A stretch of 64,000 nt of DNA from Psilocybe cubensis. Its lineage: Eukaryota. Below are positions 27,066 to 61,154 of this stretch, piece after piece. The position numbers were made by a program, and so were the translations under genes. Location: positions 1,860,001 to 1,924,000 of the forward strand of contig CM039006.1 of the NCBI GenBank assembly GCA_017499595.2. Direction: 5' to 3'. The notes beneath the pieces are model-generated. The model saw only the letters and a list, made by a program, of their open reading frames with translations. It did not search any database and had not been told where the DNA came from. Position 1 is the first letter of the stretch, and every line of letters starts with the position of its first letter.

Positions 27066-27246
27066 TGTTGGAATGATAGTCGGCGAGCGACTTCGTCGCT
27101 AAGTCATTATCTTTCTATTGTAGTTTATCTTATCATATTTTTTCTAGATCATTCTACTACAGGTTCCGTAGCTACTGTAGGTACAGGTGTATAGTTACGT
27201 CGTGAATCGATATCTTTTACCACCACTGCGCATTATACTTACAACA
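27066..27246 (+). repeat. Copia-1 3' LTR
   Basis: Identical to 6965-7145. Confidence 0.97.
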
Positions 27247-29616: not shown

Positions 29617-29934
29617 CACATAAGACAGTTTATTTATAACGTACATTACCTAAGATTTAATAATAAGGATATTACGTGACATACGGTGGATTTACTCCCG
29701 CTACCTAATTAGGAGATTAGCGTGATGTACGTGTGATTTAGCCTGGCAAATCATAGCGTACATGACGTGCCATTTAGCGCTAAATGGAGCCGCCGGGTGG
29801 CCTGCGGGATCCGCGCGTCTACCTACACGGAAGAAACACGGGCCGGAAATGAGCCGGACGGGTCCATTTGCATCCCGTGTATTGCAAGCAGACGGATCCG
29901 CTTGACCCGTGTTGTGCTGTCAGACGGACCCATT
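29617..29934 (+). repeat. KDZ-2 left TIR
   Basis: Reverse complement of 24631-24948. Confidence 0.95.
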
Positions 29935-30012
29935 TGACCCGTATCTTCCCAGAGAGGGAGGGATATTTGAGAGGTATTGCGAATCAATGAGCACAAGGGC
30001 TCCAAAAATAAT

Positions 30013-31442: not shown

Positions 31443-31748
31443 ACAGTCCAGAAAGTGCAACTGGGTGGGCTTGTTTATATATCTCACGGAATACAATACT
31501 ATCCGAGGATTCTCCATGACACGGAAATAGATTCACCCGTGTATCGAACTTAGCAACTTTTGCACAAACTGGATCTGGTGAAGAAATCACATGACTCAGA
31601 TTGTACATGTTTGTGTATGGTTTTGTTTTGCGGGACCGCTTTTTTTTAGACTTTTTTTAGACTAACTCCAACCACGATCACCACCCTCACGTTCTACCGT
31701 GCCTCACCACTTTAACGCGTCTTCCCCCATAAAAACACGCTTTTTTCA

Positions 31749-34319: not shown

Positions 34320-34597
34320 TGTATTTCAATTCTTTGTAACTTTTTTTTGGTCTCCTTTTTTGCCTGTCATATATTACATTGCTCACATCCCTATACAATT
34401 TTTTCATCATTTGGACTGTATATAGTTTTTACTCTCATGTGCTCATCTGTTTTATACCTCTCCCAAAAAGTAGCACTTGATGATTTTTAATGAACCCCGC
34501 TTTCTGTTTTGATTTTGTGTGAAAACATGTTTGAGAAACATCAAGATAAGAATAAAAAGCATCACATTCAATAGGTATCATGAATCTACTTCAACAG

Positions 34598-36908: not shown

Positions 36909-37787
36909 AATTGCAGCGATGTAACAAGTAGCTTATCGATGAGTATCTGTGTGATCTAGTCAAATCTCACGTCATACGGAGATAAAATAAGCTTCCGATC
37001 ATACTAAATGAATGATGTGATGTCATATTTTTCCCAATCAGGTAATCCCGCTTCATCGTCAGCCACGATGATCAAAGCATGCTGGTCGCTGTCACATACA
37101 TTGACCTCATGATTTTGCAATAGTTCCCTCTGCACTCAATCAATAAACATGAAATTTTGTAAACATTTAGCGCTTTATATAAAGATAATCTTACAAGGTT
37201 TTAAATTCTTGTTAGATGGCTGTAAAGATACAGAAACACAAAATTCAAATTCACGTCTTCTCACCCAAAACTTGTGAAACCCAAAACGGCAGTCATCTCA
37301 GAGACCATGAGAGGTATTCAAATGCATAATTTTTTTCAAAAAATATAATGATCCCAGTGAGCTCATTTTGACACATTTTCTAGTATATTGAGAATATCTC
37401 CTTAAATACGAGGATTCACATTCTACAAAAAATGTCATTCGGTAGCTATTAAAAATATCTTTCATATGATATACGCCGGAGGAATGAGGGGCCAGCCAGT
37501 GAAAAGATATTTCAAAAACACTCCAAAGTGTGGTTCTGAAAGGGTCGTTCTGCATCATATTGTACATTTATGATGGGATCACGTCCATTTTGTGCATCTC
37601 TGGATTAAGTTTTGTTCATAACATTTCACTCACTCATCCAAATATGCTGCAAGATAGATCATATGAAAGCTATTTTTCTCCTCTTTAAAACGGCATAATT
37701 GAGGGAAATTTATCTACAGAAATAAACATGTTATACTACATTTAGATCTGCGCTCACAGGCTGTCAGACTCTTTGTTTCCAACATCC

Positions 37788-40700: not shown

Positions 40701-41710
40701 GGTCAATAAACGTCGCTCCATGCGGACCCGCGTTGAAGCCTTCTGTCGATCCGCTATGACCTTCATGGGCGAAGATGTCTTGGAGGATATTCAAGGGGAC
40801 ATCGCTCCCATACTTGACTATGAAGTCAGTGACAACGACGATCCTGATCTTGGAAATGTCAACATTACCCGCGCGGATCCGGAACGACAGCCGCTTCCGT
40901 TTCCCTCCGCCGTCAAACAAGATTTCTTTGACGGCCTTGACGCGGGAACAAACCTCATTTTAAAAGGGCTTCGCAAACTTGAACTTCAAATAAGACATGG
41001 CCACGCAGAGGACTGTCTGGAAGCGGTCCGGTCAGCCTTGATCCAGCTTTCTTGGCAGTATAAATATCAGGTTCGGACCGCCGACTCCGTCTATATGGGG
41101 ACTCGTGCTTGGGATGGCGTCAAGCTTTTGAATGCTTCCTGGAAATTGCACCGGCGACTCTACAACACAAACCGTCAGAAGATGATCTATTTATCTGCTG
41201 GCGTGCGAGACGAGGATAATATTCGGAAACAATATCCCATTCTGCAAGTCCATGATTGCAAGCATAGTAATGCCGTGTCGGATCCGAACATTCGCGGAGG
41301 AAGCTCGGACCGTCTAAGTTGGATTTGGAGATCCCGTCAGGGCCTGGACAATGATAATCAATTATACGTTAATGAGTGTGAGTACTGCTATTTGTATTTC
41401 TAATTTTTTTCTCAAGGGCTTCTTAGTCTTTAGGCTAAACTGGCTCCGCGCGCGAGCTCAGAGGAATAGATGGCAAGAGGAGCTGGCCTTGACAAAAAAG
41501 GAAATGGAATGGACTGTCAGATTTTATGTGTATATGGCAAAGACATGGCGTGCACGGCATGATTTTGTTCCTGACAGGTTAGTTGGTCACAGGGCAAATG
41601 CTCAAAAGCAGATTGCCATGTGGAATGATCTGGGGCGGGCCGCGGATAAGGTCTTCCGTCAAATTAACCCAGAGTATCCGTCCGTGTGGAGATTTATAAT
41701 TACAGATTAA
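37788..41710 (+). CDS. KDZ-2 CxC2-KDZ transposase, apparently intact
   Basis: Exons join in frame, including a GC-AG intron at 39373-39420 that brings DGNFK into frame and an intron at 39596-39734; YDINCQY, HVHGH, GEILE. Confidence 0.93.
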
Positions 41711-41754
41711 CCAGTTCTTTGAACATTCTTGTTGTATCCCATCTCGTTGAATTC

Positions 41755-43379
41755 ATGCACTTACCGCGGCTTTTTAAACCTCCTGTCGAGGACGAACATC
41801 ATCTCCTTACCTATGATGAGCGACGTGCTCTGGCCAAAGTTCATGTCCATGTTTGTGGTGCACGGATCCGTGCCGGATACCGTTTGTTCATTGCAAACGG
41901 AGACTCTGTTTCCTCCGTGCGTCGCCAAAAATGGATGTATTTGCTCGACCTGGAGGTGGTAAGACAGTAATTTTGAACGATTATATCTTGTATTGAGAAC
42001 TGGTCGTCAGGCTATACTGCTGAGAGTACTCGGATACTGCTATGTCAATGGATTCCAAGTCGATATTCCATTTTTTATATCAGAAATTCTCAATCAGAGC
42101 GTACATGCCGTTTTGAACCGAACTCCCCACCATCGAGCTGTTCTATTTGAATCTCTAAATCAAAGCTGGTCAGCATGGGAAGATGATGAAATTTTAAATC
42201 AGACCAAGAGCTGGGGATATTGGTGGAGGGACGGATTTGCTGAAGGCGATGAGTGGCAAGTTGCCTTTGTTACCGTTGAATCGCAAGCAAGAGAATTTTG
42301 GAACAAGGTATGTTTTTTTATTGCTGTGGATTATATCTGATTTGCGTCCTTCCCACCAGGTGGTTCTGCCTGAATACCAACAAGAGGTACTCCGGCTAAA
42401 TAATCAGAGGAAAGAAGCTAAGGAGGGCGCAAGTTCATCTACCTCTGGGCCTCCAAGAAATCAGGAAAACAATCCCAAGGGCAAGGGAAAGGCGGCTGAA
42501 CGGACATCCGTCCCCACCTCGGGGAAGCACGGATCCGCGTTGACGGGAAAGCACGGCTCCGCGTTTTCACCGCCCACGGGGAAACCCAATCCGCCGACCC
42601 GTGTTGCAAACACGCGGGATGAAACATCCCCAATTGCAATTTCTGACCACAGACCGCCCTACTGTCCCCGCTGCGGTCAGCCTATCCTAACGGGCGTAAT
42701 GAGGGAGTTGGCTCACCTGCGCCGGAATGTGGCGGACAAAATGAAAAATGCCCATAAAGCAGTGACTACTTCTTCGGCCGCCTTGGGCAGATATTCTGTA
42801 TTGGAGAAGATGTGGATTGACTCTAAGGAGCACCCGTTCTCTAACGGCAAGGGGCTTTCAGCCAAATACAAATTTCAGCATCCCGTTCACCCTTCTCCTG
42901 ACAGTTGGGGCGCTATAACGGCTCAAGCCCGGTCCTTCGAGGTCTCAAAGCTCAAAGTCGCTTCATTTTACATCAACGACATTTTTTATTCTTTTATTGC
43001 CGTCAAGGAACTACCTTTTCATCCACTCTGGTATCATTCGCCACCCTCCAACACTGCAAATATTCATCTCCCAACAGATACTCTGCCTACTCCCGGTTCC
43101 GTCAGCCCTCCGTCAAATGCACACACCAGCAATGCCTTCCTTTTTAACGCAAGGTCAAGACCTGTTTTCCCGGGAGAAGAGGATGATATTGATAGTACGT
43201 CCAATACCACTGAATCCTCTACACCAGCTACGTTTTTAGAGCATCTCGCACAGGACTTTGAAGAGGAGGCGGATGTGGAGTCTTCCGCCGGTGATACGAC
43301 GGAGGAGTCAGATGCTTCCGGTAACTCGGAAGAGCTTAGCGAGGACGTGTCGGAAACACCCTGGGATGAGGAATCTTAG
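41755..43379 (+). CDS. KDZ-2 cargo protein of unknown function
   Basis: Mirror of 11258-12882. Confidence 0.65.
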
Positions 43380-43606
43380 TTGCCCACCTCTCGCACAGGA
43401 CATCGAAGAGGAGGCGGATGATGCCTTTTCCGCCGGTAATACGACGGCGGAGTCCGATGATTCCGGTAACCTTGGAAGAGCTCAGCGCGGGCGCGTCGGA
43501 AACACCCTGGGACAGAGAATTCTGGTTGTTCTGTAGCTTTCGTACCGTTTTGTTTTGGAAATATAAAAAAATCTTCCCCAAACCCAACTTCCAAGTCAAA
43601 AACTGA

Positions 43607-44886
43607 TCATATTTCAAAATCAAAAGTGTTGGTGGCCGGTAAATTTGCAAAAAGATCGTACGTAGTAGACCATCCCGCCTCTTGGACTCCCAGCTCTTTA
43701 AATACATTCCTACGCATGTAATAGACTATGACTGCCCTATCTCCCTCGCACACCGCGCCGTGTTGAAGCAACCTGCCAGTAATTGCAACAAGGGTCATGG
43801 GATCATACTTGTACCGAAGTCCAAGGCCAGGAAGCTCAAGCCGTCCGTGTTCACCCTTCCCAAGTGGCATCAAAAAATCGTACCATGAGTAGCATGACCC
43901 ATTATCCCGATGGTACGGTGTATCTCGGTTGCTGATGGCGGTCATGACTCCAAAGGGCGAACTCCATATTGTGAGAATTTGCTTCAATATTTCGGCCTTA
44001 TGGACGAACTCCGGTTCCGCAGCAAGCCGTTGAAGAAATTTTATTCCCGCCCGGTACTGCTCGGGGTGTATAATGCTCAAGATGGCTCCCAGCAAAGCCG
44101 AAGATGTCATCATGTCTCGTATAAACTCCTGTCCAATAGGATTACACAAGTCCAAGGAGACCTCAAGCGGGTTGGACGTCTGAGGAAAATATGAGGCAGT
44201 ATAATACTTAGCAAACAAGTTTCTCACCTCATGGCCTTGCTGAAACCATGCCGGGGAAAAGTTAAGATTTCCAGGTTGAAGCCAACCTGGCTCATGTCGA
44301 AAGTAACTGTCATTGACCCTCCAGCTTGTGGCCAAAGGTGCCGCCTTGTGAATCATTGTTTCAATATCCCGTAATGAATTCCACACACTCTCCTGTTACT
44401 CTTTAGAACGCATAATATAGGAATTAATCGGTCCGTTTCTAAAACTCACCACCCTTGTCTCTGACAAAATACCTGGCAGGTACCACACCAATATGTTGCC
44501 TGCACTATCGATTACAGTTCCGGGCAGGGTTTGGTACTGTAACGTGGAATGCACCGGAGGAAACTGGTCTTTCAGGCGAGCCTCAACGGCAGAATTCTGA
44601 CCCGTGCAACGTGCGCTGAGATGGGTCAAATATTCTTCTGCATCCCACGTCGTATATTCTGCCATTCACACATTATTTAATCTCAATTTTCAAAGCTTAT
44701 TGATTGCATACCTTGATTTTCAAATGCCTGCAAAATCACCTCCACAGCTAGATTGCACTCAAACATGGTCTCAGCACTGAAGTTTTCCCGGATTTGATTA
44801 GGCAGTTCTGCATGCCAAAGACGACTAGCTATCTTTGCCTTCATGTAGTTTGAGAGGGATTGGGTTAGCTCAAAGGCATAATCCAT
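43607..44886 (-). CDS. KDZ-2 TET/JBP-like dioxygenase
   Basis: Mirror of 9751-11030; ORF translations are identical. Confidence 0.85.
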
Positions 44887-45011
44887 ACTATCAGGGTATG
44901 TGGAAAGAAATTTGCTGCCAGTATAATCTATACACCTTATTACATATATTAACGGTCATCCAATGTACGATTCAAGGCGGATATTTGTCGGAATACAGAA
45001 GCGGATGGATG

Positions 45012-45329
45012 AATGGGTCCGTCTGACAGCACAACACGGGTCAAGCGGATCCGTCTGCTTGCAATACACGGGATGCAAATGGACCCGTCCGGCTCATTTC
45101 CGGCCCGTGTTTCTTCCGTGTAGGTAGACGCGCGGATCCCGCAGGCCACCCGGCGGCTCCATTTAGCGCTAAATGGCACGTCATGTACGCTATGATTTGC
45201 CAGGCTAAATCACACGTACATCACGCTAATCTCCTAATTAGGTAGCGGAAGTAAATCCACCGTGTCTCACGTAATATCCTTATTATTAAATCTTAGGTAA
45301 TGTACGTTATAAATAAACTGTCTTATGTG
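45012..45329 (-). repeat. KDZ-2 right TIR
   Basis: Reverse complement of 9308-9625. Confidence 0.95.
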
Positions 45330-47192: not shown

Positions 47193-48264
47193 TCACTCTC
47201 GTGTCCAAGTTCGTTCTCTGATCATCCGGTCTAGCTGAGGTCGAGGAATGACTGAACCGTCTTGTGGAAAATAGCGAAGAAGTCGGAAAGCAGCTACGCC
47301 TTGAGCCAGTTGCGTACCATTAAGTTCTCTAAGCACATATGATCCTCCTCGTGTCTGTCGTACAACTTCATAAGGTCCAAGGTATTGTGGCTTGTGCTTG
47401 CGATTCATCTCCTTCTCGACTTGACTGTTCCTAACGAGGACTAGATCACCAAACTTGAAGCTTTCTTGTCGAAGACGTCGAGCAAATCGTCGTTCAAAAG
47501 TAGCTTTGGATTGAAGTCGTGATTGTTTCAGAACGTCGGCTATGTTGGCTAAGTCTTCATCTTGTTTCATGAGTTGTCGAACACGGAGAGCTAGGAGATC
47601 TTCGGAACTCATTCCTTGTCGGAATCCATCAACTAGAAATGTGGCTTCAAGGAGATCGAATGGAAGAACAGGATGAACACCATGCATGACGTAGAAAGGG
47701 GAATGTCCAGTAGAGCGTCGAGTAATGCATTTGTCGGAGAAGAGTGTGTGATGAACGCACTGTGGCCAGTCTAGAGGTCGGTCGCCGCAAGCTTTGAGAA
47801 TGGATTCACGGAAGTCAATGTGACCACGTTCAATAGATCCATTGGCTTTAGAGTTGTAAGGAGAAATGCGAACTTGAGGAATGCCGTACTTTTCCATCAA
47901 AAGACTGAAAGCGCCAGAGACTTCTACTCCATTGTCCGTGCGTACAATAGCAATAGCACCATATCGGCATATGACTTCTTCCCAAAAGAAAGTGGCCAGC
48001 TCTTCGGAACGTAAAGACTTGAGGGCACGTCCTTCAGGTGCACGTGATAAGTCGTCTCGGGCTAGGACTACGTATCGGAAGCGTCCAGACTTGGGCATGT
48101 ACATGACGTCGACATTGATGATAGTGAAGATAGTTGGGGTAGCTGTGATAGTGATAGGAACTTCGCTTTTCTTGGTGGATCTGATCTGACATTCATGGCA
48201 AGTAGCGAGATGATGCTTGATATCCTGAAAAAGAAATGGCCAGAAAAACCGAATGCGAATAACT
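47193..48264 (-). CDS. Gypsy-A integrase (3' part of pol)
   Basis: RFFWP..CHEC, VRTDNG, NGSIERGH, YLGPYEV (GPY/F); continues in frame from 58180 across the CCAA TSD (GVYGVFG-VIRIRFFWP). Confidence 0.92.
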
Positions 48265-48268
48265 CCAA

Positions 48269-49067
48269 TGATAAGTAGCGCTGTGGCGTAGACCTGTAAA
48301 ACCAACACGAGTGACCTAAAAATAGACGACGGACCGAGCCCTGTAAGACAGATCAGGTGACCCGGTATGCCCGAAGACGCGTCAATAAAACGCCGTAAAA
48401 AGTTGACTCAAACAAGGCGGTGAAGCAGAGGATGACCCGACGGAGCTTGGAATAAGCAACGACGGTCACCCAGTCCGAACCGACCGGGAACATGAGAAAG
48501 AGACGCGCGAGCACGCCTTTGGAAGCATAACCGTGCTAAGAGGCACTCAGACACGGTCACCCAGCGGAACCAGCAAAAAGAAACGACTGTTCCGCGCTAC
48601 GCTATTAGGAAAAACGGATCAGCGAGAGAAGTACCAAGCCACGCAGACGTAACGCACGGACCAGTGGTAGGGAATATAAAAGCAAGGGAGCAGGGAGAGG
48701 GAAAGGTAAGCAACCCCCGTTGTATAGAACAGGCGGAAGTTTCGGGTCATACCCATTGTCGCACTAGTCGAACTTGCGTAATAAAAATTGAGTCATCAAG
48801 TTATAAGTTAAATTGAATTGTTTTGCGCGATCCATTGGGTCTTGATAGTTTGAGTCACTTGGGCTATTGTAAACACCTTGACCAGTTGACTTAGTATATT
48901 GAGATCTATTGCAACAATCATAACATAACTTGGACAACAATCTATAAAGATACACCCTAAAATCCTACGAACTAGCTCTTCCCAAATACTACATATTTGG
49001 TGAAGAATAAGACTTGTGTGGGTAAATAAGACAGAACTACAGTCTTACAAACCTACGCAACACTTCA
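48269..49067 (+). repeat. Gypsy-B left LTR (799 bp), inverted relative to the coding strand
   Basis: TGATAAG...CACTTCA; TATAAAA at 48675-48681; reverse complement of 57381-58179. Confidence 0.93.
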
Positions 49068-49069
49068 TC

Positions 49070-49090
49070 TGGAGCCCACCTCCCCCCCCA
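49070..49090. promoter_or_regulatory. Second PBS copy (TGGAGCCCACC, plus strand) fused to a PPT-like tract (TGGGGGGGGA, minus strand)
   Basis: 49070-49080 is the reverse complement of 57368-57378; 49081-49090 reads TCCCCCCCCA. Confidence 0.8.
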
Positions 49091-49307
49091 ACAATACATC
49101 TTGTCCAGGGCCTCAGGTCTGCGTCGTGCCCGACCCCGCGCTGTTTCTTTTCCACTTGCGCCTTCAATTCTGCCCCGAACACCGCCCTCGATCTCTGCAT
49201 GAGTCAGCGCTGCCTCATCTGCCAGTTTTTTCCTCCAAATCTCTATCCCGCTGGCTGAGTTAAAAAGGTGCGTCTTCGTGCCAATTGTTCATCACTACAA
49301 CTTTCTC

Positions 49308-50657
49308 ATGTCTACCGTCCTACGTATCGAACTCAACCCATCTGCGGCGCACTTGCGCGATGAGTTGTCTCTTGCTTTTGGCCTGGCCCTTGGTGACAAA
49401 AAACGGCCAGCTCCAATCTTTTCACAGGCCCATAAGGTCCCTCGCATCGCGCGCGAGTTAGCCGATGCTGTTCATCAACTGGTGAGTACCTGGTTTGTAC
49501 TACGATCCCGTTTCCTAGTGACCCTCCTTCTCAGGAACCTACTTGGGTCGCTGAGCATGTCATGGTTGACCAGGACGCCACCGACCTTTGTTTCGAACTT
49601 CGTACCGCGTACTTCAATCTTCAAAAGGCCTTGCGTATCACCCAGCCCAGTCTTCCCGAAATGCCGCAATCGCGCGAGTTTGAGGTCGTCTTTGGCTTGT
49701 GCAAGACCATCCAACAGTTGCGTTGCGGGGCCACGTCTGAAAGTCAAGCCGGCGAGCCTAATGTACCGTCGCCCCCCGTCACTACCCCGGCGCCTGTTGC
49801 GACCCCCGTTCCCACGACTTCTACTGGGAATGCTATTCCGCCGTCGGAGTCGTCTGACAGTGCTAGCAATACCCGCAACAAGGTGAGGCATTTCAAACTC
49901 TTCTTCTTAATCTTGCTTTCGCACTTCCACTGCCCTGTCAGCGACGTCGGCGCGTAGTGAAGTCCAAGGCTTTCATTGAGTCCTCAGATGTATGCCATCC
50001 TGTTACCTCTTCCTCTCGTTGTTGCCTTTGTTTCCTTACACTAATCTTTATCTGTCCTGCCGCTGTAGGAGGATGAGGTAACACGCCGAGACCTCATTTT
50101 ATTTATTACCCAACTTATCGATGGGATGCAGGCCATGTCCGTGGATGGCGATCCACCCAGTCAGATCGTCGTGCCGCCGACTGTCATTACTTCCAGCACA
50201 TCCGGGGCCGCGCAGCTTGGGGCGCCCGCAGCTTCTTCCTCGAAAGGCCAAGGTGGTAGCAAGGTACTTGTCCTCCTCCGCAATCTGACATCTTACTGAC
50301 TAGTCTCAGCGCTCTGAAGCCGTAATGTTGGATTACGAAGCTGCTGGAGTCGCTGCCCATGAACCTTCGCTACACAAGGCGCGGAAATATGCGAACAAAC
50401 GAGCTCGGTCTGAGGAAACCGACCCCAGTATGTCACGTTCCATTACTAGTCCCGTTCCTGGTGTTAACTATCTAGAAGTGACTCAATTTGGTTCTTCTAC
50501 CGAAGGCCTTTCCATCGATCGTGCCTTGTATAACTTGTACAAGGAGAAGGCGGATCAGGAGTTCCACCTCTCGCATCTCCGCAAACAGAACGAGCTCACT
50601 CTCAAGGAGATAGCTCATTATACGAGGATGAAGAAGGGCAAGGCCTACCTTCGCTAA
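49308..50657 (+). CDS. Gypsy-B antisense accessory gene, 6 exons, ~352 aa, unknown function
   Basis: Exons 49308-49481, 49535-49882, 49942-49989, 50069-50077, 50132-50263 and 50310-50657; all introns GT-AG and phase 0; no internal stop. Confidence 0.75.
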
Positions 50658-50756
50658 GTACCTCGCTCCTTATTTCTTTTTGGGTTTTTAGTCCAGTATT
50701 TAGTCCTTCTAGACTATAGTACAGGGTTTTCCCAATACATCGCGTTGTTTCTTCTG

Positions 50757-53700
50757 TCAACTTTCTAGCCCCATCTGATCCCAGTCTGGTGCTGCAGCAT
50801 AGTCTTCGTGTGATACTTCTATGCGATCTAACCCTTCCTTTGATGTGTCAAGGATCTCGTCTATGTTTTCTGGCAACGGTATGTGTTCTCGAGCATAATA
50901 CGGAACAACTCGAAACGCTCCGACTTTGTTTTGCCACACGGCACCGTCCATTTCTGCGACGATATATGAACCTCCTTGGGTCCGTCTGACTACAATCATA
51001 GGACCCAGGTAGCGTGGAGTCAGCTTGCTGCTGTGTGACGATTCTACAGCTGTGTTTCTTACTAATACTAGGTCTCCTGGACTAAAACTATAGTCCCGTA
51101 TCACCGCCTTATGATCTGCTTCGTATTTAAGCAAGCGTGCGTATTTATCCTTGTCTATCCTAGCGCGCATGCGATCTACCTGAGCCCGATGCTTTATCAG
51201 TGCCTTAGCTCGGTAAGCTATTAGCTCTTCAGTACTCATTATGCCACTTGGCGGGTTGACTAACCAGGTTGCTTCCTTGATATCTAACGGGAGGGTTGGG
51301 TGTGCGGCCGTAACTAGGAAGTATGGCGAGCACCCCAACCGTCGCCGGATTGTTACGCGGTCCGCCCAGAACACAAAGGTAAGGAACCAGTACCACTTTT
51401 TAATGTGCTCTTCGCCTAACATCTTATATAGCATTTGTCGAATGTCGAAATGGTACCGTTCGATTTTTCCATTCGCTTTGGAGTTATAGGGTGATATCTT
51501 GATTCCGTTGATACCATATTTTTCGCTAAGCCACTTTAGTGCCGCCACAAAAGGTGGTCCATTATCTGTGACAATTGTAGTAAGGCACCCCCATCTACAC
51601 AAGATATCTTCCCACAACCATTGTCCGATGGCTCTACCAGTTTCCCTTGTCAGCCCTCGCCCCTCTACCCACGTTGTCAAGTTGTCCCTGCCGTGTACAA
51701 CTGTTCCACAGCCGTTCGATGGCGGAGTCATTTTCATGCTGTCTGCATGTAATACTTGGAAGATTGACGGAGTGAACGTCATGGTAGGCTTAAGCTTTAT
51801 CATTGTATGTTGTCGTTGCTGGCATGCGTGACAGGTTTTGACATACCACGCTATGTCTTTCTCCATAGATGGCCACCAGAACCGTTGTGTCAACAACTGG
51901 GAGGTGGCATAGAAGCCACGGTGGCCATTGTGGTCGTGAGCCGCCTTCATCATGTACGTACGGTCTTCCTTTGACACTACTAAACGATGCGTGCTTTTGT
52001 AACTGCGCAGATACAGCCGTCCTTCATGTGTGAAGAACCGCCGCGCAAAACGTGTGAACCTTTCTTTTCTTTGTGGTGTCCACGCAGTATTCTCACAGGG
52101 TTTGTTCTCTAACCATTCTCGTACCAACTTGAGGTCGTCATCTTGTTCCTTCGCCAACGATGTCCGGTGTTGCTCGTAGTATGGTAAGTGCCGTTCACCT
52201 TCCGTTGGTAACGCCAGAGCATTGACTAATTGCTCAAAAGTCTCCGCTTGTGGTCCCGTCAGACAGTGTATTGACTGCTGGAGCCATTCCTCGATAACTT
52301 GCTGTTCTGCGGTTCGTAACTCATCTGCACGTTTCAATTCTTCACTAAGTTCATTAGGGGTCTTGGCCGCGTCTGCCAAGCTGCCACTTCCTGGCTCGAT
52401 TTGGTCTACAAACTCCGCTATCGAGTAGAATACGCTTGGCGCAGGACTTAGTAAAATTTCCTGCTTATACCCTCCTCGATTATCGATAGTATCCTTAAAA
52501 TTGGATACCTCTTTTACCCCGGGTTCGCTGGCATCGAAGATGTCGGTAGGAGGCAGAACCCATTCTTCCACCTCATCCCCGCTCGTCTGCGGCAACTCGT
52601 ACCACGGCTGCCCTTTTCGTCGTGATAACCCATCTGGCCCAAAGGTTTTACCTGCTTTGTGTCGCAAGGTAAACTGATACATCATTATTTCCTCGATCCA
52701 TCTGTTAATCGTTGCGTTGGGCATCATATCAGGGTTACGCAGCATGCCGTCTATGTACTGTGCATCGGTTTCCACTATCAACTTCCTGCATCCAATCAAG
52801 TATGCACGGTTCTCTTTCAATGCCCTTTTTAGGCCGTATAGTTCTCGTTTGGGTTGTGAGTATCTGGCCTCATGTTCGTGCAGGGTTATTGACCCGAATT
52901 TTACATAGTTAACAGTCCCGTCCGGATTCTCCTGGTAAATATAGTACCCAATGGCAATAAACGAGGTGTCTACAGCTAATACTACCGCTCCTGCTGAGTC
53001 GTAGTCAATATTCCTCAAGCAAGGTGCCGTCTCCGCTGCTCGTTTCAGGAGGGTCATGCTTTGTGCTTGCTGCGGCCCCCATTCAAAGGTACGTTTCTTT
53101 TGAGTAAGCTTTTGTAGGTGATACGCTTTTTCAGTGTACCCTGGTATGAAGGCTCTCAAAGTCCCGCAGGTACCCAGGAAGGCTCGTATATCCCCCACGT
53201 CTTCACAAGGTGCCCATTCGCTTATCGCCTTGACCCGTTCTACCAACGGTTTACGTCCCTTATAGGTACATCTATGGCCGACTACTGTGATTTCTTCTGC
53301 ACAGAGTACAGATTTATATCCTGAGAAGGTACCACCCGCGTGTTTCATGCGCTGTAGCACCCTATTTACATTTTCTAGATGCTCCCATACGAAGCGTCTT
53401 ATACCCTGATTTTGAGGTATGGTCTCGAAGTTTTCCCCAACTTCGTACCTAGTTGCAGGCCCTCTAACCGCCACATCGTCGATGTATGGTATGGTTATAT
53501 TTGGGATCTCGTCTTGTAAGATATAAGTCACATCATCGTGGAATATGGGTACCGAATTAGTCCACCCCATTGGCAGTGTCACTAGTCGCATGGCACCAAA
53601 GGGCGTTTGGAACGTGGTCATATCCCTAAATTTCTCGTCAATCTTGCGCTCATCGTATCCTACGTATAGGTCAAACATGCCACCACACGCCCGACCTGCA

Positions 53701-54608
53701 AAATGCATTGCAAGATCCTCTGTACCTGGTGGTAGCCCGGAGTGCGCGATAGTTACTGCGTTTAATGGTTCCAGGCTGTGCACGATGCGTAGGCTTTTAC
53801 CATCTTTCTTTAGCACAGTAAACCACCGGGAGCGGTAAGATGCATTTGATTTCTCATATACTCCCGACTCTTGTTTGGACTTAATTATCTTACAGACTTC
53901 CTCGTACAGGCCCTTGGGAATGGGTATGTTTTTATATACCCAGGGTTTATGCTCTACCGTGGGTATCTTAACTGGGGGAAAGAATTCCTCTTTGAAGTGT
54001 CCGCGTTCGCTATCGTCCCAAGCAAACGCTTGGTTCTGTTGCATAATGATGTTGTGTACCAGTTTCTTTTCTTCTGGCCACAGAAAATCATCCCCGTGTA
54101 CCTTATCCATCGCCTCCATACGTTCTTGCGTATAACGTCCTGTTGGTACAAACTCTGTCGGATGTGGGTTCAACGCGGGCATGTCTGCCAGCGGGTCTCC
54201 CTTGATGTCACGTTTTATACGGAATTCCTCGGGTAGATCAGTATAAACTGGTCGCACCTTCTGCGCTACGGGTTTATACCTTTTCTTACCCAAGTAAGTT
54301 GCAACTTGCTTGGTTACCCGGTGTTTTGACGCCCTTGTCCTTGGTGGCACGTCATACTTTTTACCTTGATAAAACTGTTCTAATTTTTGCTTATCCGAGG
54401 GTTCTAGTACTTCATGTTCCAATACTTGGGATAGGAAGGCTTCTCTGACCTCTTTTCGAGAGAACTTGCCTACTTTTACTTGGTATGCATGGACCTTTAA
54501 CTCTTGTGTATTTTCATTCAACTCAAACACTGCTGCAACCTCTCCGCCCTCGTTTACTTGATTCAGCAAGCTTATCTTGAGATCTTCCTCGAGGCCTTCT
54601 AAAAACCC
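50757..54608 (-). CDS. Gypsy-B pol (RT, RNase H, integrase with HHCC and GPY/F)
   Basis: LPMGWTNS, YIDD, AVDTS, ETDA, H..GH..C..C, VTDNG, NGKIERYH, YLGP; uninterrupted ORF of 1270 aa or more. Confidence 0.95.
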   Translation of the reverse strand, partial: GFLEGLEEDLKISLLNQVNEGGEVAAVFELNENTQELKVHAYQVKVGKFSRKEVREAFLSQVLEHEVLEPSDKQKLEQFYQGKKYDVPPRTRASKHRVTKQVATYLGKKRYKPVAQKVRPVYTDLPEEFRIKRDIKGDPLADMPALNPHPTEFVPTGRYTQERMEAMDKVHGDDFLWPEEKKLVHNIIMQQNQAFAWDDSERGHFKEEFFPPVKIPTVEHKPWVYKNIPIPKGLYEEVCKIIKSKQESGVYEKSNASYRSRWFTVLKKDGKSLRIVHSLEPLNAVTIAHSGLPPGTEDLAMHFAGRACGGMFDLYVGYDERKIDEKFRDMTTFQTPFGAMRLVTLPMGWTNSVPIFHDDVTYILQDEIPNITIPYIDDVAVRGPATRYEVGENFETIPQNQGIRRFVWEHLENVNRVLQRMKHAGGTFSGYKSVLCAEEITVVGHRCTYKGRKPLVERVKAISEWAPCEDVGDIRAFLGTCGTLRAFIPGYTEKAYHLQKLTQKKRTFEWGPQQAQSMTLLKRAAETAPCLRNIDYDSAGAVVLAVDTSFIAIGYYIYQENPDGTVNYVKFGSITLHEHEARYSQPKRELYGLKRALKENRAYLIGCRKLIVETDAQYIDGMLRNPDMMPNATINRWIEEIMMYQFTLRHKAGKTFGPDGLSRRKGQPWYELPQTSGDEVEEWVLPPTDIFDASEPGVKEVSNFKDTIDNRGGYKQEILLSPAPSVFYSIAEFVDQIEPGSGSLADAAKTPNELSEELKRADELRTAEQQVIEEWLQQSIHCLTGPQAETFEQLVNALALPTEGERHLPYYEQHRTSLAKEQDDDLKLVREWLENKPCENTAWTPQRKERFTRFARRFFTHEGRLYLRSYKSTHRLVVSKEDRTYMMKAAHDHNGHRGFYATSQLLTQRFWWPSMEKDIAWYVKTCHACQQRQHTMIKLKPTMTFTPSIFQVLHADSMKMTPPSNGCGTVVHGRDNLTTWVEGRGLTRETGRAIGQWLWEDILCRWGCLTTIVTDNGPPFVAALKWLSEKYGINGIKISPYNSKANGKIERYHFDIRQMLYKMLGEEHIKKWYWFLTFVFWADRVTIRRRLGCSPYFLVTAAHPTLPLDIKEATWLVNPPSGIMSTEELIAYRAKALIKHRAQVDRMRARIDKDKYARLLKYEADHKAVIRDYSFSPGDLVLVRNTAVESSHSSKLTPRYLGPMIVVRRTQGGSYIVAEMDGAVWQNKVGAFRVVPYYAREHIPLPENIDEILDTSKEGLDRIEVSHEDYAAAPDWDQMGLES

Positions 54609-55591
54609 TCGGCCTTTTTACGGCGCTCTTCTGCACACGTTTTTGGCCCTTTCCCTCTCTCAAAGGTAGGAACCACCGCTTTCCTTCCGGTGTTAGGGTC
54701 CTCTATACAGATGGTAGCCGACCCATCGTGCTCTGTCTGCACGTTAGATCGTGTTAACGAATCAAAAGTTCTTCCTAACAAAATCGTGTAGGCTGGGTTC
54801 CTGATCACATGAACTTGCAGATACACGGTGACCCCTCCAAACGTGAACGGTACATTTCTTGCGAGCCCCAAGGTGCGATTAATTGTCTTATTTGCACTTT
54901 CCATGTTGATAGTGACATCTGGGTCCCAACTTAGGCCGGTCTTGAGTGCTACTTCCTCAGACATGGATACTATTTGGGATCCGCTATCCATTATCGCTTC
55001 AATCTCTTCTACTCCATTGATTTTGGGCCAGAGAGACCGCAGTTGCTCGGTCTCTTTCCCTGTGTAAGTGGAGGTTGGTAAATCCTTTTCGCCTTGTTGC
55101 AATAATTGCAGGTAGGGGTCATTACCAACTTTATATTGATTTTGTGAGTCCAATTCATCGGTCAACATAAACGCCGCTAATGGTTCTATTTGAGACGTTG
55201 ATACTTTTATGGGAGTAACGTCTTTTCGCAAGTGCTCTCTCACTTGTGGTGCACTGCCCAGTAAGTCCCTTACAGTCACTGTGACTGGTGCATTCATAGC
55301 TTTTTCATGTAGTTGCCGACTGATTATCATGTTTTCAACTGGTGCCTTAGTACTGTATGCCGGCTTTGTCTTGTAGTCTGGCCCACGCATGTCTGTTATG
55401 GGCCGTACAGCTTCATTTAGCGGTTGTACGTCTAGGTATGGCAACTCATTCTTATTTTTCCTTGGGTCTTCTTCTTCTGTTTCTGCTTGTACAGGTGTAT
55501 TACCGTTCTCCGGGTTGTTTCGTTGTTGGAAACGCGGCGAGGTACGTCGTGTCCCTTCATAACCCTTCCTCGAACTTAGGGAAAATTTCCC
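54599..55591 (-). CDS. Gypsy-B aspartic protease ORF (-1 frame relative to gag)
   Basis: AIMDSGSQIV, ILLGRTF; the frame is open back to the slippery site at 55582-55591. Confidence 0.9.
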   Translation of the reverse strand, partial: GKFSLSSRKGYEGTRRTSPRFQQRNNPENGNTPVQAETEEEDPRKNKNELPYLDVQPLNEAVRPITDMRGPDYKTKPAYSTKAPVENMIISRQLHEKAMNAPVTVTVRDLLGSAPQVREHLRKDVTPIKVSTSQIEPLAAFMLTDELDSQNQYKVGNDPYLQLLQQGEKDLPTSTYTGKETEQLRSLWPKINGVEEIEAIMDSGSQIVSMSEEVALKTGLSWDPDVTINMESANKTINRTLGLARNVPFTFGGVTVYLQVHVIRNPAYTILLGRTFDSLTRSNVQTEHDGSATICIEDPNTGRKAVVPTFERGKGPKTCAEERRKKAEGF

Positions 55592-57291
55592 AGGGTTGGC
55601 TCTTCCTCTTCATCGAGGCCCGACTGTCTTCCCATCACAGCCTCAAACGCGTCGTCCCCAAAGTCTTCTCGGAGACTCATAAGGGATTTAGACAACTCGT
55701 ATTGTCTATGAAGTCGGTAGTGAGCAGCATCCAGAGGTGAATCGTTGTGACTCTGCCAGAAGCTCGAAGTCTTACCGACTGGTATAACCCCTGGTGTCCT
55801 ATGCAAGCTTTCGACTACCTCTTTTCGCGACTTATTTCCCATCGGATGCACCTGCGATCCATCTGGTAATCTTACATACCCTTCGGCATTCTTGATGACC
55901 CATTTGTTTTCTAGATGTCGTCTCACATGTGGGCACTCTACTATAATGTGAGTTTCCTCCCTACAATAATGGCACCCCGTGGTCTGACTTATGCGAGCTT
56001 TGGGTGTGAAGGCTGTTTGAGCCGTCTGCGGAAACGCTGCAGTCGGTACAGTGTTTAGCTGTAGACTGTTTTTGAAGGTGAGCATCATATTTTGGAACTC
56101 TAACATCTGTTTATGCTGGCTTTCCTGTAGCATTTTTAGCTCTAGCGCTCGTTTATGTTCTTGGTTACTGATTACATCCGACAACTGAGATATTTGTTCC
56201 TCTAATTTGACATAGATCTTGTCCTTGGATTCTGGAACTAGGTCTGACGTCCCGTACGCACGCGCTGTACTGTACGTACCCTTCATCAAGGTGTTTGAGT
56301 TCCATTTTGCGGCCCTCTCAGCGATGCTGATGGCGGCTTCGACTACATCTACAAACTTGTGTCGATCCTCCCAACGCACTAACTCGATCTCGTCTGTATC
56401 GTCTGCGTTATCTTCTTCTGCAGGCGGCTGACTCAGATTTTTGACGACATTTGTCGTGTCTAACTTGAAGTCCAGCTTCTGACCTACTCGTCCCGCAAAT
56501 TCAGACGTGAGACATCCGATGAAGCGTTCCACTAGATCTCTGTTCGACACCAGAGCCGGCGGCTGTAGTAGCTTACCGGCTTCTGCTCTAAAGGTTCGGA
56601 CTAACGCCATTAATCCTGGGCTGTCGTGGCTTTCGATCTGATTATTTCCGCTGTGTTTTCTGCAAATTTTGTCTAACGCCTCGATGGAACCCCGGTGTAG
56701 GTTGACCGCCTCTGGGTATGACATTATAAGGTCTTTTCTGAACCGTTTCCAGGTCCCATTTTGGAACGAACTGAAAGCGCGCCATTCGGACTCTGTTGTT
56801 GGAGAAATATATCGACATACTACGCGTTTCTTCTCATTGTCCGTCTTGACCCCATATTTTTCAAACAGATCGTCTAACTGGTCAAGGAAACGCAGTAGTT
56901 CTTCTGGTTTTTGTTCATCAAACTTAGGCGCACCCTTGTCTCCCAGAAGTGGTAAGTCTTTTGCCATTTTTCCTGTGTTTATTGTTTCCGGATTAATACA
57001 CTCGTTTTCCTCAGCCGAGAGATAGATTGATTCGTCCGCGGCGAGTTGACCTGTGTTAATTCCTGCTGACTGCTCGTTATCGACGCTGTCTTGTGTCTTT
57101 TCGAGGTCAGTTTCGATTTTTCGTATAACGTCTACTATAGACTGCAGTGGCTGTCTTTTATTTAATATCGACTTATGGGCCCCGCGTTTTGCAGGTTTTT
57201 GTTGTTGTTTTAGTTTACGGGTCTCAGCCGCAGCGTAGGATTCCGCGGTTTGTTCACTGATTCCTGCTCGCGCGCTTCGACGCGTTGCCAC
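55576..57291 (-). CDS. Gypsy-B gag
   Basis: GDKGAPKFD..; CHYCREETHIIVEC knuckle; first ATG at 56967, GTG at 57291. Confidence 0.88.
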   Translation of the reverse strand: MATRRSARAGISEQTAESYAAAETRKLKQQQKPAKRGAHKSILNKRQPLQSIVDVIRKIETDLEKTQDSVDNEQSAGINTGQLAADESIYLSAEENECINPETINTGKMAKDLPLLGDKGAPKFDEQKPEELLRFLDQLDDLFEKYGVKTDNEKKRVVCRYISPTTESEWRAFSSFQNGTWKRFRKDLIMSYPEAVNLHRGSIEALDKICRKHSGNNQIESHDSPGLMALVRTFRAEAGKLLQPPALVSNRDLVERFIGCLTSEFAGRVGQKLDFKLDTTNVVKNLSQPPAEEDNADDTDEIELVRWEDRHKFVDVVEAAISIAERAAKWNSNTLMKGTYSTARAYGTSDLVPESKDKIYVKLEEQISQLSDVISNQEHKRALELKMLQESQHKQMLEFQNMMLTFKNSLQLNTVPTAAFPQTAQTAFTPKARISQTTGCHYCREETHIIVECPHVRRHLENKWVIKNAEGYVRLPDGSQVHPMGNKSRKEVVESLHRTPGVIPVGKTSSFWQSHNDSPLDAAHYRLHRQYELSKSLMSLREDFGDDAFEAVMGRQSGLDEEEEPTLGNFP

Positions 57292-57367
57292 TGTCGCGTT
57301 TTTACAAACACTTAGTACGCTTTTTGTGTTTTTGTATTTTTGACCCTACTGACTAACCCTCCCTCGC

Positions 57368-57378
57368 GGTGGGCTCCA
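57368..57378 (-). promoter_or_regulatory. Gypsy-B primer-binding site TGGAGCCCACC
   Basis: Starts with TGG 2 nt inside the LTR's terminal CA, upstream of gag. The cognate tRNA was not identified. Confidence 0.8.
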
Positions 57379-57380
57379 GA

Positions 57381-58179
57381 TGAAGTGTTGCGTAGGTTTG
57401 TAAGACTGTAGTTCTGTCTTATTTACCCACACAAGTCTTATTCTTCACCAAATATGTAGTATTTGGGAAGAGCTAGTTCGTAGGATTTTAGGGTGTATCT
57501 TTATAGATTGTTGTCCAAGTTATGTTATGATTGTTGCAATAGATCTCAATATACTAAGTCAACTGGTCAAGGTGTTTACAATAGCCCAAGTGACTCAAAC
57601 TATCAAGACCCAATGGATCGCGCAAAACAATTCAATTTAACTTATAACTTGATGACTCAATTTTTATTACGCAAGTTCGACTAGTGCGACAATGGGTATG
57701 ACCCGAAACTTCCGCCTGTTCTATACAACGGGGGTTGCTTACCTTTCCCTCTCCCTGCTCCCTTGCTTTTATATTCCCTACCACTGGTCCGTGCGTTACG
57801 TCTGCGTGGCTTGGTACTTCTCTCGCTGATCCGTTTTTCCTAATAGCGTAGCGCGGAACAGTCGTTTCTTTTTGCTGGTTCCGCTGGGTGACCGTGTCTG
57901 AGTGCCTCTTAGCACGGTTATGCTTCCAAAGGCGTGCTCGCGCGTCTCTTTCTCATGTTCCCGGTCGGTTCGGACTGGGTGACCGTCGTTGCTTATTCCA
58001 AGCTCCGTCGGGTCATCCTCTGCTTCACCGCCTTGTTTGAGTCAACTTTTTACGGCGTTTTATTGACGCGTCTTCGGGCATACCGGGTCACCTGATCTGT
58101 CTTACAGGGCTCGGTCCGTCGTCTATTTTTAGGTCACTCGTGTTGGTTTTACAGGTCTACGCCACAGCGCTACTTATCA
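57381..58179 (-). repeat. Gypsy-B 5' LTR (799 bp)
   Basis: TG...CA on the minus strand, followed by the PBS and gag. Confidence 0.93.
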
Positions 58180-61154
58180 CCAAACACACCGTATACTCCT
58201 CGATGTCCGAGTTCTTCATGAGCTTGAGTAAGAATGAGACGTCGCTTGTCTGGATCTAGAATAACCAAGAGTGGAGGTCTTCCTTGTCGTCGTCGATAGA
58301 GTTGATCATCTTTGAGATAGTACTGAGTAGCGCGAGCAAGGAATCGTCGTCGGGACTGCAAATTGGGAAAAGGGGGTATAGTTTGGTCTGTAAGAAATTG
58401 AAGAATTTGTCGAAGTGTCCGTTCTTGAGAAGAAGAAGAAGCAATAAAAGAAGGAAGCGAGATAGAGTCATATGATGGCATAGAAGAGGGAGTAAAAAGA
58501 AAAGTAGGGAAAAATTTGACCGTATTAAGAAGAGCAATATCGTCGAGCCAGTCATCGTCTTCTTGAGGTTCTTCTAACTCTTCAGAAGTTGGTTGTCGCC
58601 TTGAAAGTCCATCAGGTCCACGATGATTACCGGCCTTTACATGGATGAGCTTGAAGTCAAAGAGAAGAATGCCTTGTATCCATCGATTCATACTAGCACT
58701 AGGCTGCAAGTCAGGCTGATTGAGCATGCCTTTGATGTACTTGGCGTCGACTTCAACGTAGAGGTTCTTGACTCCAATAAGATAGAGGCGGAATTCTCGA
58801 AGAGCACGGAAAAGACCATATAACTCAAGCTTGGGCTGACTGTATCGTGCTTCTCGTGGATTAAGTGAGATAGAACCATAGCGGACAGGTCGTCGGATGC
58901 CTTCTTTGTCAAGCTGATAGAGAATAATACCAATAGCAATGTGAGAAGTGTCCACGGCAAGAATAACTGGGCGATCGGATGAATAGTCAATAGAAGTGAG
59001 AACAGGAGGATTGGAAATGATTTCTTTGAGAGTTTGGAAAGAGTCTTCTCGTTGTTGAGTCCAGACAAAGGGTTCGTCCTTACGATAGAGTTCTGTGAGT
59101 GGTCGGACAAGGGCTGAGTAATTTCTGATCCAAACACGCATTGTTCCGCATAGACCTAGAAAGGATCGGATGTCGTGAACAGACTTTGGTCGTGGCCAAT
59201 CAGTGACTTTCTGTATCTTGCTCTGATCGGGTAGTCGTCCATCCGGAGTGCATAACTGTCCAAGGATAAGAACTTTAGGCTGAGCGAGCTGAGTCTTTGG
59301 TCCAGAAAATGTAGCACCAGCACATCCCATGCGGTGCATAACTCGATGAACATCTTGAGCGTGTTCCCAGACAAATCGTCGTATTCCTGGATTTTCTGGA
59401 AGTGTTTCTGGATTGCCGTCCTCGTCTAAGTACTGTGTTGGAGGGCCTTTGATAGGAACATCGTCGATAAAGACATTGGCTACGTGAGGGATCTCGTCAC
59501 GAAGGATGAAGGTTGTACAGGCTTGAAATTCCGCTACTGCATTCGTATATCCCATAGGCATTGAAGTAAGTCGAAGAGGTCCAATAGGCGACTGGAATGT
59601 GGTAAGATCTCGGCTCATAGGATGGATTTTGCGTGCGTCATATCCCCAATATAAGTCAAAGACCGTGTAAATAGAATGACCAGCAAAGGGAACCACAAAG
59701 TCGTCAAGAACTGGAGGAACTCCTGCGTCGCGATAGGAAATAGAGTTAAGAATCTGCAGATCATGAACTAGACGGATAGCACCAGATGTCTTCTTCTTGA
59801 CCCAGAAAATTGGAGAGCGATACGGAGCTTGGCTTGGTTCGTATACTCCAGCGTCTATCTTTTCACGTAAGAGACTGATAACTTGATCCTTGATGCCGGG
59901 TGGAATAGGAATATTTCGGACTACCCAGGGCTCGTGATCCTCAACAGGAAAGATGTATGGAGAGAAGTATTCTTCAGAAAATGTTCCACGTTCGGACTGA
60001 TGAAAAGCGAGTGAGCGTTCATTGAGTTTAAGAATATGAAGGAAAAGCTTTTCTTCTTCCGGCCATAGGAATTTGTTGGCGTTAATGTTCATTGATTGTA
60101 TGTGATCAAGAGTGAGTCTGGTTGTTGGCGTAAAGGCAGGGGGATGGAGTGGGAGAGGTGGGAGAGATAATAAGGGATCAACAGGAATTCGTCGTATAAC
60201 TTTGGCCGATTCTGGAGTAACCCGATTTATAGGTCTAACTTTCCGATCGACTCGTTTATAGGCTGTATTGGCAGAAGAGGGGGAAAGAATAGGTGATATG
60301 AATTGATTCATGGAGGCTCGGAAGGTTGATAGTGTCGATCCTGACGCGGCAGTGAATACAAAACCAATTGTAGGATAGCTTGACGACCTTGCCGAATTAG
60401 TTCGGTTGACGGTGGGTTTAGCAGTAATATCTGAATTGAGTGACCATGATCTCGCATAAATGCTTTGATCTATCCGAAATTTCTGTAGGTCTTGACCCAT
60501 CAGAGGTAATGGAGTGGTCGTCCTTCTTATCTTGTCCGTAAGCTTGATTTTTCGCTCTTTGTGGATAAGATGAAGCCCTTCCCGATTCTGTAGGAGTTCG
60601 AGGTGTATTGGAGGCGTGATGGTGGTGTATATTGGAGATAGAGATTCCGTATAGCATTCCTTTGGGAGGTTGCGCGTGTTTCTCCAAGAACTCTGCAATA
60701 GGTGACCTGAGGATTTGTTTGCTGACTGAAGTGGTGAAGCGGGGGTGGAACAAATAAATAAAAGAGAGGAATAAATAAAGGTTAGTTTAACGACTTTTCG
60801 GTCGACGTACATACAAATGGATAAAGTGGAAAGAAAATGAAAATAAAAGGTAAAGGAAAAGGTTGTATGGCTTGGAGTTGCCATTGAGAGTGTGAATGTG
60901 AGGAAAAGGTGCATAAAAGAAAAGTGGAGGCGTTCAAGAACTCGTTGCACAAATGAAAAATCTACATAAGTGTCCGTGAAATAGAAAAGAGAAACGCAAA
61001 ATGTGGAAATAAAATGGGAGGTGGAATAAAGGCATAACGATGAGGAAGAAGAAACACCAGCAACAGCAAAGGTGACAAAGAAAAATTGAGGGGATCGGAG
61101 AACAAAGAGAGGGCGTTGAGGAAGCAAGCTGATGTCCATGCACCGTCCAGATAG
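58180..61154 (-). CDS. Gypsy-A pol (RT, RNase H, start of integrase)
   Basis: MPMGYTNA, FIDD, AVDTS, EVDA, AHEELGHRG; truncated by the Gypsy-B insertion. Confidence 0.92.

Follow-up and report, generated by a model that had tools for sequence, protein, structure and literature searches.

A Ty3/gypsy element with inverted long terminal repeats

The subject of this analysis is a retrotransposon located at positions 48269-58179 of a 64,000-nucleotide (nt) stretch of Psilocybe cubensis DNA (contig CM039006.1 of assembly GCA_017499595.2, positions 1,860,001 to 1,924,000 of the forward strand), hereafter called the window and numbered from its first letter. The family to which this element belongs is a member of the Ty3/gypsy group, and the copy in the window is a malformed one, in which the left long terminal repeat (LTR) is inverted relative to the coding strand. 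It represents a one-off integrant of an ordinary family, the fossil of a reverse-transcription accident and not a new type of element. The coordinates of the features at the locus are collected in Table 1.

By repeat search and blastn, segments 48269-49080 and 57368-58179 form an inverted pair of 812 nt, 100% complementary, whose arms stand 8287 nt apart, as had been proposed in an initial annotation made from the sequence alone. A blastn search of the element against the whole 64-kb window returned no second copy and no further match. The composition that the annotation had assigned to the arms also agreed with the sequence: each contains an LTR of 799 nt, which starts with TGATAAG and ends with CTTCA, followed by TC and TGGAGCCCACC, the latter being 11 nt of a primer-binding site (PBS). 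In the LTR's own sense, a TATAAAA motif is found at 48675 and an AATAAA motif at 48780, while the minus strand within the left LTR holds neither AATAAA nor ATTAAA. Beyond the 11 PBS letters the arms diverge, with the right arm continuing into GCGAGGG, the genuine leader, and the left one into TCCCCCCCC.

Public sequencing runs were used for comparison. Fourteen runs were indexed, eight of which, from three studies, contain half or more of the words of the element; no RNA run was among those listed. Four of the 14 were compared with the window: X1, a set of source-like contigs; X5 and X7, contig sets that belong to two further studies; and X11, which consists of raw Illumina reads. The target of this comparison was the segment 47000-57380, which contains the left arm only. 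The LTR contigs of X5 and X7 both stop at 49067, which independently confirms the limit of 799 nt. Approximately 47 nt at 48700-48747, just 3' of the TATA box of the LTR, are common to another repeat family; the corresponding matches are confined to 48700-48747, with unrelated sequence on both sides (one contig on each side in X1; 31 and 28 reads in X11).

Table 1. Positions and strands of the element's parts, its target site and the interrupted host element in the window.
Feature	Position	Strand	Description
Host C-terminal integrase part	47193..48268	-	CC half of zinc domain, rve core, SH3-like domain; different, high-copy gypsy element
Left target-site copy CCAA	48265..48268		Empty site in 4/4 runs joins 48268 directly to 58184 onward
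Left LTR	48269..49067	+	799 bp, TG..CA; inverted relative to coding strand; X5/X7 LTR contigs span exactly 48269-49067
TC + 11-nt PBS copy TGGAGCCCACC	49068..49080	+	Inner end of inverted arm; X1 repeat contig reaches 49080 at double depth
Polypurine tract GGGGGGGGA	49081..49089	- (coding strand)	Adjoins complement of PBS copy here; adjoins U3 start in canonical copies
ORFx	49308..50657	+	Antisense to gag-pol; exons 49308-49481, 49535-49882, 50069-50263, 50310-50654 + stop; GT..AG introns; 354 amino acids
pol frame	50757..54617	-	1286 amino acids; reverse transcriptase (YIDD), RNase H, integrase (HHCC, D959/D1018/E1053), SH3-like C-terminus
Protease frame (DSG)	54599..55609	-	-1 shift in from gag, -1 shift out to pol; Pfam aspartyl-protease matches
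gag	55576..56967	-	463 amino acids, ATG at 56967 down to 55579; CCHC zinc knuckle CHYCREETHIIVEC
Genuine PBS (first 11 nt) + TC spacer	57368..57380	-	Beside 5' LTR; coding strand runs on GCGAGGG; joint 49067<->57380 in 3 X11 reads
Right LTR	57381..58179	-	Normal 5' LTR of minus-strand element; repeat search
Right target-site copy CCAA	58180..58183		Sequence inspection and empty site in runs
Host reverse transcriptase, RNase H, integrase start	58180..61154	-	HH half of zinc domain; same interrupted gypsy element

The unit is flanked by a 4-bp target-site duplication (TSD), CCAA, a short duplication of the kind made by Ty3/gypsy integrases. An empty site was found in all four runs compared, where the sequence reaches 48268 and then goes on with ACACACCGTATACTCC, which in the window comes directly after the right-hand CCAA (X1, X5 and X7 with one contig each, X11 with 351 reads). 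The presence of this empty site means that the TSD is real and that the unit is an insertion. Together with one copy of the TSD, the element measures 9915 nt, equal to 3 x 3305, and when the unit is removed a host gypsy integrase is restored. The upstream host open reading frame (ORF) aligns with the insert's own pol as far as residue 905 (GHRG.Y), and the downstream host ORF resumes at pol residue 912, preceded by five unaligned host residues; therefore, the insertion separates the HH and CC halves of the zinc-binding domain of the host integrase. Both the CCAA duplication and the restoration of the host frame had been claimed in the initial annotation and were upheld by the empty site and the ORF alignments, with which its view of an integration in one piece through two U3 (unique 3' region) ends is also in agreement. 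In the comparison of reads and contigs, the depth of the host element was many-fold above that of the insert. Position 47091 is a sharp repeat boundary: in each of the four runs, many contigs or reads (562 in X11) match up to it and then diverge in various ways, so that a further high-copy element must end there, inside the tail of the host gypsy element.

The genes for Gag, protease and Pol all lie on the minus strand and are coding-intact, in line with what had been annotated. As established by Pfam and by reading of motifs, the domain order protease, reverse transcriptase, RNase H and integrase is that of Ty3/gypsy elements. Residues 303-449 of Pol match RVT_1 at 24.2 bits, under the cut-off of 29.6, and include YIDD at 378; residues 513-647 match two RNase H models, residues 882-937 match Integrase_H2C2, and the tail corresponds to SH3_Tf2-1. 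The Pfam rve domain was not listed among the Pol matches at E<=0.01; the residues D959, D1018 and E1053 are conserved with respect to the rve-positive integrase of the host element and constitute a DDE triad. Some retroviruses have a three-frame layout of gag, pro and pol more commonly than fungal gypsy elements do. Here, the minus strand undergoes two successive -1 frame changes, from gag to protease (55570-55615) and from protease to pol (54590-54625), and both overlaps carry slippery-looking runs, GGGAAATTTTCCC and GGGTTTTTAG, near the upstream stop codons (GGGAAAT/AAATTTT-like and GGGTTTT, respectively). The Pfam scan found no tyrosine recombinase domain in the scanned ORFs of the element, as the initial annotation had also stated.

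One contig of X7 joins 55588 to 57349 and thus omits 1760 nt, very nearly the gag frame itself, with a side of 26 letters that falls under the bridging rule. This join may reflect either a derivative that lacks gag or a short match due to chance.

Junctions of the element in sequencing runs

Run X1 provides an independent assembly of contigs built with k=31. In this run, the repeat was recovered as one contig of exactly 812 nt (48269-49080) with a depth of 114.6, compared to 54.8 in the interior (2.1x). Further, a contig of 4938 nt covering 49051-53988 bridged the odd junction, that is, the inner junction between the polypurine tract (PPT) and the PBS copy, with 0 differences. A joint of the PPT with the start of U3 was absent from X1 among the matches listed. 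Since the double-depth contig extends through TC and the 11 PBS letters, both LTR copies in that genome precede a PBS, an arrangement which cannot have been produced by an assembler that flipped a repeat.

These observations bear on the explanation that the left LTR was misoriented, or joined chimerically, during assembly of the contig. It might be argued for this explanation that the element is a repeat in a nest of repeats and that the window differs from all four runs at three positions (57318, 57334 and 57345). However, the k-mer assembly of X1 presents the odd junction at full single-copy depth, in addition to the double-depth repeat and the lack of a canonical junction described above. 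Moreover, the flanks do not mirror each other but are neighbouring halves of a single host ORF, and the other large inverted repeat of the window consists of two genuine copies of a transposon, each bounded by terminal repeats of its own. An assembly artefact is thus hardly credible. A foldback artefact in particular was considered and rejected on these same two grounds, the unmirrored flanks and the resolution of the other inverted repeat into two transposon copies.

A different junction was observed in runs X7 and X11. In X7, the LTR contig covers 48269-49067 only. An interior contig of this run extends from 53988 down to 49081, where it differs from the window by 32 letters and 9 gaps in 4899 nt, and then continues on the opposite strand with 30 letters of the sequence that starts at 48269. 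The coding strand of this contig reads ...GTTGGGGGGGGA followed immediately by TGATAAG..., which is an ordinary joint of PPT and U3; a length of 30 letters on the LTR side is what is expected from a k=31 contig. The same joint was carried by six raw reads of X11, three placed at 48268/49082 (side 69) and three at 48269/49081 (side 44), placements which differ by one ambiguous letter only. Three reads of X11 showed the joint of 5' LTR, PBS and leader (49067/57380), and the depth of the LTR in this run, as an average over bins, was about 2.1x that of the interior. Finally, the LTR contig of X5 is preceded by a different flank before the start of U3; hence, the X5 copy lies at another locus.

The same family, at approximately 99% identity, therefore has direct LTRs in other strains carrying the same species label. 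The layout with direct LTRs, in which the PBS comes after the 5' LTR and the PPT before the 3' LTR, is that of the X7 and X11 copies, as judged from their PPT-U3 joint, and is not that of the window copy. Across the four runs, the odd junction alone was seen in X1 and the canonical one in X7 and X11; among the runs compared, the inverted form was thus seen only in the source-like one, apparently as its sole copy.

The initial annotation had offered two alternatives, either an undescribed ambisense retrotransposon architecture with inverted LTRs or the integrated outcome of a rare, aberrant course of reverse transcription. The first of these is contradicted by the sister copies and only the second is retained. 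In favour of a genuine inverted-LTR family with its own replication route, one may cite the perfect arms, the presence of a PBS in both, the intact genes, a spliced gene on the other strand and the clean TSD. Against it, the X7 and X11 copies have an ordinary PPT-U3 junction and the 799-bp limit of the LTR; the inverted form seems to exist as one copy in X1; a canonical copy has the antisense gene as well; and neither a tyrosine recombinase nor another alternative integration enzyme was found in the scanned ORFs. In addition, according to the established scheme for LTR retroelements, an RNA started in either LTR would have no sense-oriented 3' R (repeat region) for strand transfer. A family of this kind is accordingly most improbable, and its propagation, for which the annotation had suggested that sister-copy junctions be scored, was not supported by those junctions, which were ordinary in X7 (one contig) and in X11 (six reads).

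Comparison with known systems led to the same assignment. With canonical fungal Ty3/gypsy elements (Metaviridae) the family shares the order gag (CCHC), protease, reverse transcriptase, RNase H and integrase, the TG..CA LTRs, a PBS located 2 nt past the 5' LTR, a short TSD and, in the sister copies, a PPT that adjoins the 3' LTR. The window copy, in contrast, has no direct 3' LTR; its PPT is followed by an inverted LTR with PBS, and both of its outer termini are U3. Inverted terminal repeats are also a property of the DIRS retrotransposons, which, in the accessible parts of the reports consulted (PMC7192593, PMC3950715), employ a tyrosine recombinase and have neither a DDE integrase nor a TSD, unlike the element in the window with its DDE integrase, TSD of 4 bp, PBS and PPT. 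Nor did self-blast reveal an internal complementary region such as that of DIRS, as no repeat beyond the two arms was detected. The literature retrieved for inverted LTRs in combination with retrotransposon and integrase concerned DIRS only.

The inner junction and the origin of the inverted arm

From the canonical joint in X7 and X11 it follows that the PPT, GGGGGGGGA, ends at 49081 of the minus strand. The final A of the PPT, in the window, stands directly before GGTGGGCTCCA-GA-TGAAGTG..., the complement of the 11-nt PBS, TC and LTR. This inner junction is blunt, with zero letters shared across the joint. The breakpoints of the rearranged copy coincide with natural termini of replication, namely the 3' end of the PPT, the putative 3' end of strong-stop DNA and the two outer U3 termini, and the occurrence of four reverse-transcription termini at the joints suggests that the copy was formed inside the particle and not within the chromosome. 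In this respect, the annotated alternative of an aberrant product became sharper, as the exact 3' end of the PPT adjoins the exact end of a unit made of LTR, TC and 11 nt of PBS. The 100% identity of the two arms over 812 nt is what would be expected if both had been templated in one replication event.

Based on these results, the window copy probably derives from an aberrant complementary DNA (cDNA) with two U3 ends, which integrated once and is unable to replicate. The family is one of apparently low copy number with the normal layout 5' LTR, PBS, gag, pro, pol (with the antisense gene ORFx), PPT and 3' LTR, the LTRs being direct. On the coding strand, the misbuilt cDNA would have run from a normal 5' LTR through the last base of the PPT, and the 3' LTR would have been replaced by the reverse complement of the full plus-strand strong-stop unit (U3-R-U5-TC-11 nt of PBS, U5 being the unique 5' region). 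The most likely step is that a DNA 3' end at the nick between PPT and U3 jumped end-to-end onto free plus-strand strong-stop DNA and copied it to the end of U3; conversely, the strong-stop DNA might, with its 3' end, have made the jump to a sense strand that stops at the PPT. Another possibility is the joining of two cDNA fragments that had these natural ends, perhaps after integrase had inserted U3 ends from two molecules. By either route, the outcome would be linear DNA that terminates in U3 on both sides, and the element's integrase would have used both ends concertedly, giving rise to the 4-bp CCAA duplication in the integrase gene of another gypsy element. By manual count, 8 of the first 12 positions are alike between the U3 and U5 termini, a likeness which makes it plausible that integrase accepted U3 twice.

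The joining of two molecules can also be placed at the target itself. In vitro, concerted integration often uses two separate donor ends of one kind. The U3 ends of a near-complete cDNA and of a double-stranded strong-stop DNA could have been inserted concertedly at CCAA, with the inner ends, the PPT and the 11-nt PBS, then being connected by host end joining. The TSD, the U3/U3 ends and a blunt junction free of microhomology fit this route as well as they fit an origin from a single molecule, and the two routes are indistinguishable in the present data. We nevertheless regard a two-molecule integration as unlikely, since it requires the repair of a chromosome break with two dangling cDNAs and zero loss at either natural terminus.

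Inverted duplications that arise via fold-back template switching are known in genomes. A rearrangement after integration could, then, be envisaged, in which a canonical copy at CCAA later had its 3' LTR replaced in situ by an inverted 5' LTR with PBS, through template switching or gene conversion. While this would account for the lack of a canonical donor in X1, it demands two switches placed exactly, one at the outer LTR terminus by the TSD and the other at the boundary of PPT and U3, the latter without microhomology, and such breakpoints are natural ends only for reverse-transcription intermediates. Its probability is, in our estimation, very low. Inversion by recombination between inverted LTRs was also considered and discarded, given that the repeats stay in place in such an event and an outer U5 cannot become U3.

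Several points weigh against an origin from one aberrant cDNA. Firstly, the evidence for the canonical form is limited in amount: the joint in X7 has 30 letters on its LTR side, one short of the 31-letter bridging rule, and in X11 it is carried by only six reads. Secondly, X1 is possibly the same sample as the assembly, so that it rules out an assembler error and does not represent an independent strain; its outer left junction, from flank to U3, is supported only indirectly by reads among the matches listed, and the depth of a contig is not a true copy number. With no canonical donor in X1, loss or segregation of the donor has to be taken as an extra assumption. Thirdly, a scan of the 64-kb window for transfer RNA genes gave 0 genes, and the 11 nt are a putative natural end of the strong-stop DNA. 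Finally, positions 57318, 57334 and 57345 read A/A/T in all four runs vs. C/G/C in the window. Apart from these three letters, the X1 interior is identical to the window, and the discrepancy may come from a paralogue's contig kept after bubble popping or from small local assembly errors.

Malformed proviruses have been described in other retroelements. According to the accessible text of a study on HIV-1 (type 1 of the human immunodeficiency virus), 2 of 78 unique proviruses had inversions, and inversions or asymmetric LTRs were ascribed to template switching by reverse transcriptase (PMC9278108). The defective proviruses described there resemble the window copy in being integrated and replication-dead, and in the involvement of template switching with strong-stop DNA and two co-packaged genomes. 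They differ from it in that their inversions are internal, or their LTRs carry deletions, and their outer ends are the ordinary U3 and U5, whereas in the window a whole strong-stop unit is inverted in place of the 3' LTR, which leaves U3 at both ends. A foamy-like endogenous retrovirus of the guppy with an 'inverted LTR' (PMC5210030) is likewise a single full-length copy with inverted LTRs, reported as an oddity; the accessible part of that source mentions it briefly, with no junction, PBS, PPT or TSD, and sameness of structure is not claimable. A description of an LTR-PBS unit inverted at the PPT was not found in the literature searched, outside of which lay subscription journals and supplements.

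With regard to its consequences, both a sense-oriented R/U5 and AATAAA are lacking from the 3' end of the window copy and, therefore, first-strand transfer should fail. Judging from its sequence, the copy should be immobile, yet still able to encode Gag, protease and Pol. The promoter of the left LTR should face ORFx and the two LTRs should transcribe convergently. Beyond a one-off event, the inverted copy could be thought of as a recurrent and defined by-product of the family's replication, in which the PPT end jumps to strong-stop DNA and a molecule with two U3 ends is formed, and which silences the family via convergent transcripts and double-stranded RNA. If so, double-stranded RNA across the whole element would silence the family, possibly explaining why no other copy seems to be present in the source strain, and ORFx would come under an LTR promoter. 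This extension is a speculative one, and we consider it improbable.

In the form of a one-off integrant, the window copy is a natural, base-exact record of a PPT end joined to the end of a strong-stop unit, with an apparently normal 4-bp duplication made from two U3 ends. It provides an in vivo anecdote for strand transfer and for the recognition of ends by integrase, as well as a caution for pipelines of LTR-element annotation that assume direct LTRs.

The antisense gene ORFx and other elements of the window

The segment between pol and the left LTR contains ORFx, a gene of four exons on the strand opposite to that of gag-pol. As checked by tblastn, its exons are 100% identical to a 354-residue 'uncharacterized protein' of Psilocybe cubensis in UniRef; an extra exon of 48 nt (49942-49989) is possible, with the frame being kept. 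In the canonical copy of X7, the ORFx region is continuous with pol and the PPT, and ORFx is therefore a regular passenger of the family. Accordingly, the stretch of 1.7 kb that separates pol from the left LTR is a normal internal part of the family and not a second promoter-proximal module special to the window copy. The introns of ORFx probably persist because the gene is antisense to the genomic RNA.

Relatives of ORFx are few, and together with it they make up a small family of orphan proteins. Among 1.84 billion representatives, four matches at E<=0.001 were obtained, including ORFx itself; one is a paralogue of the same species, with 46-54% identity, and the other two have 25-32%. No significant Pfam family was assigned to ORFx, its three relatives or Gag. 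Metagenome scans with Gag and with the ORFx alignment retrieved 113 and 132 stretches by pattern, respectively, 0 of which were confirmed by tblastn.

Boty-like gypsy elements of Botrytis reportedly carry an additional antisense gene, brtn, in work attributed to Zhao et al. in 2011. The context of brtn and Boty-like elements is cited in the accessible text of PMC8365987, and additional ORFs of plant gypsy elements are treated in that of PMC9289625. These elements and the one in the window have in common an extra gene on the opposite strand. They differ in that ORFx has four exons and no recognised domain, and the likeness to brtn meant here is one of general kind. The search of the literature on fungal retrotransposons with antisense ORFs gave nothing relevant. 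Possibly, ORFx serves this lineage of retrotransposons as an accessory gene. An antisense gene with introns, together with an apparent limit of about one copy per genome, is possibly of more lasting interest than the flipped LTR.

Elsewhere in the window, a transposon of approximately 15.6 kb is present as two copies in opposite orientation, at 9308-24948 and 29617-45329. Their arms (9308-23924 vs. 30713-45329) are 100% complementary over 14617 nt, and each copy is bounded by terminal inverted repeats of 318 nt with 99% identity (9308-9625/24631-24948 and 29617-29934/45012-45329). Both copies encode a KDZ transposase (PF18758), a CxC2 domain protein and a Tet/JBP 2OG-Fe dioxygenase, and both contain 36-nt tandem arrays, the length of which differs between them. 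An association of KDZ with TET/JBP in DNA transposons is known from the literature, and the pair looks like a very recently active transposon of this KDZ-TET/JBP type. The first of the two copies splits a copia-type element (6965-27246) into a gag-integrase part at 7223-9370 and an SH3-RVT_2 part at 24950-27058. Direct repeats of 181 nt, 100% identical, at 6965-7145 and 27066-27246 may be the LTRs of this split element.

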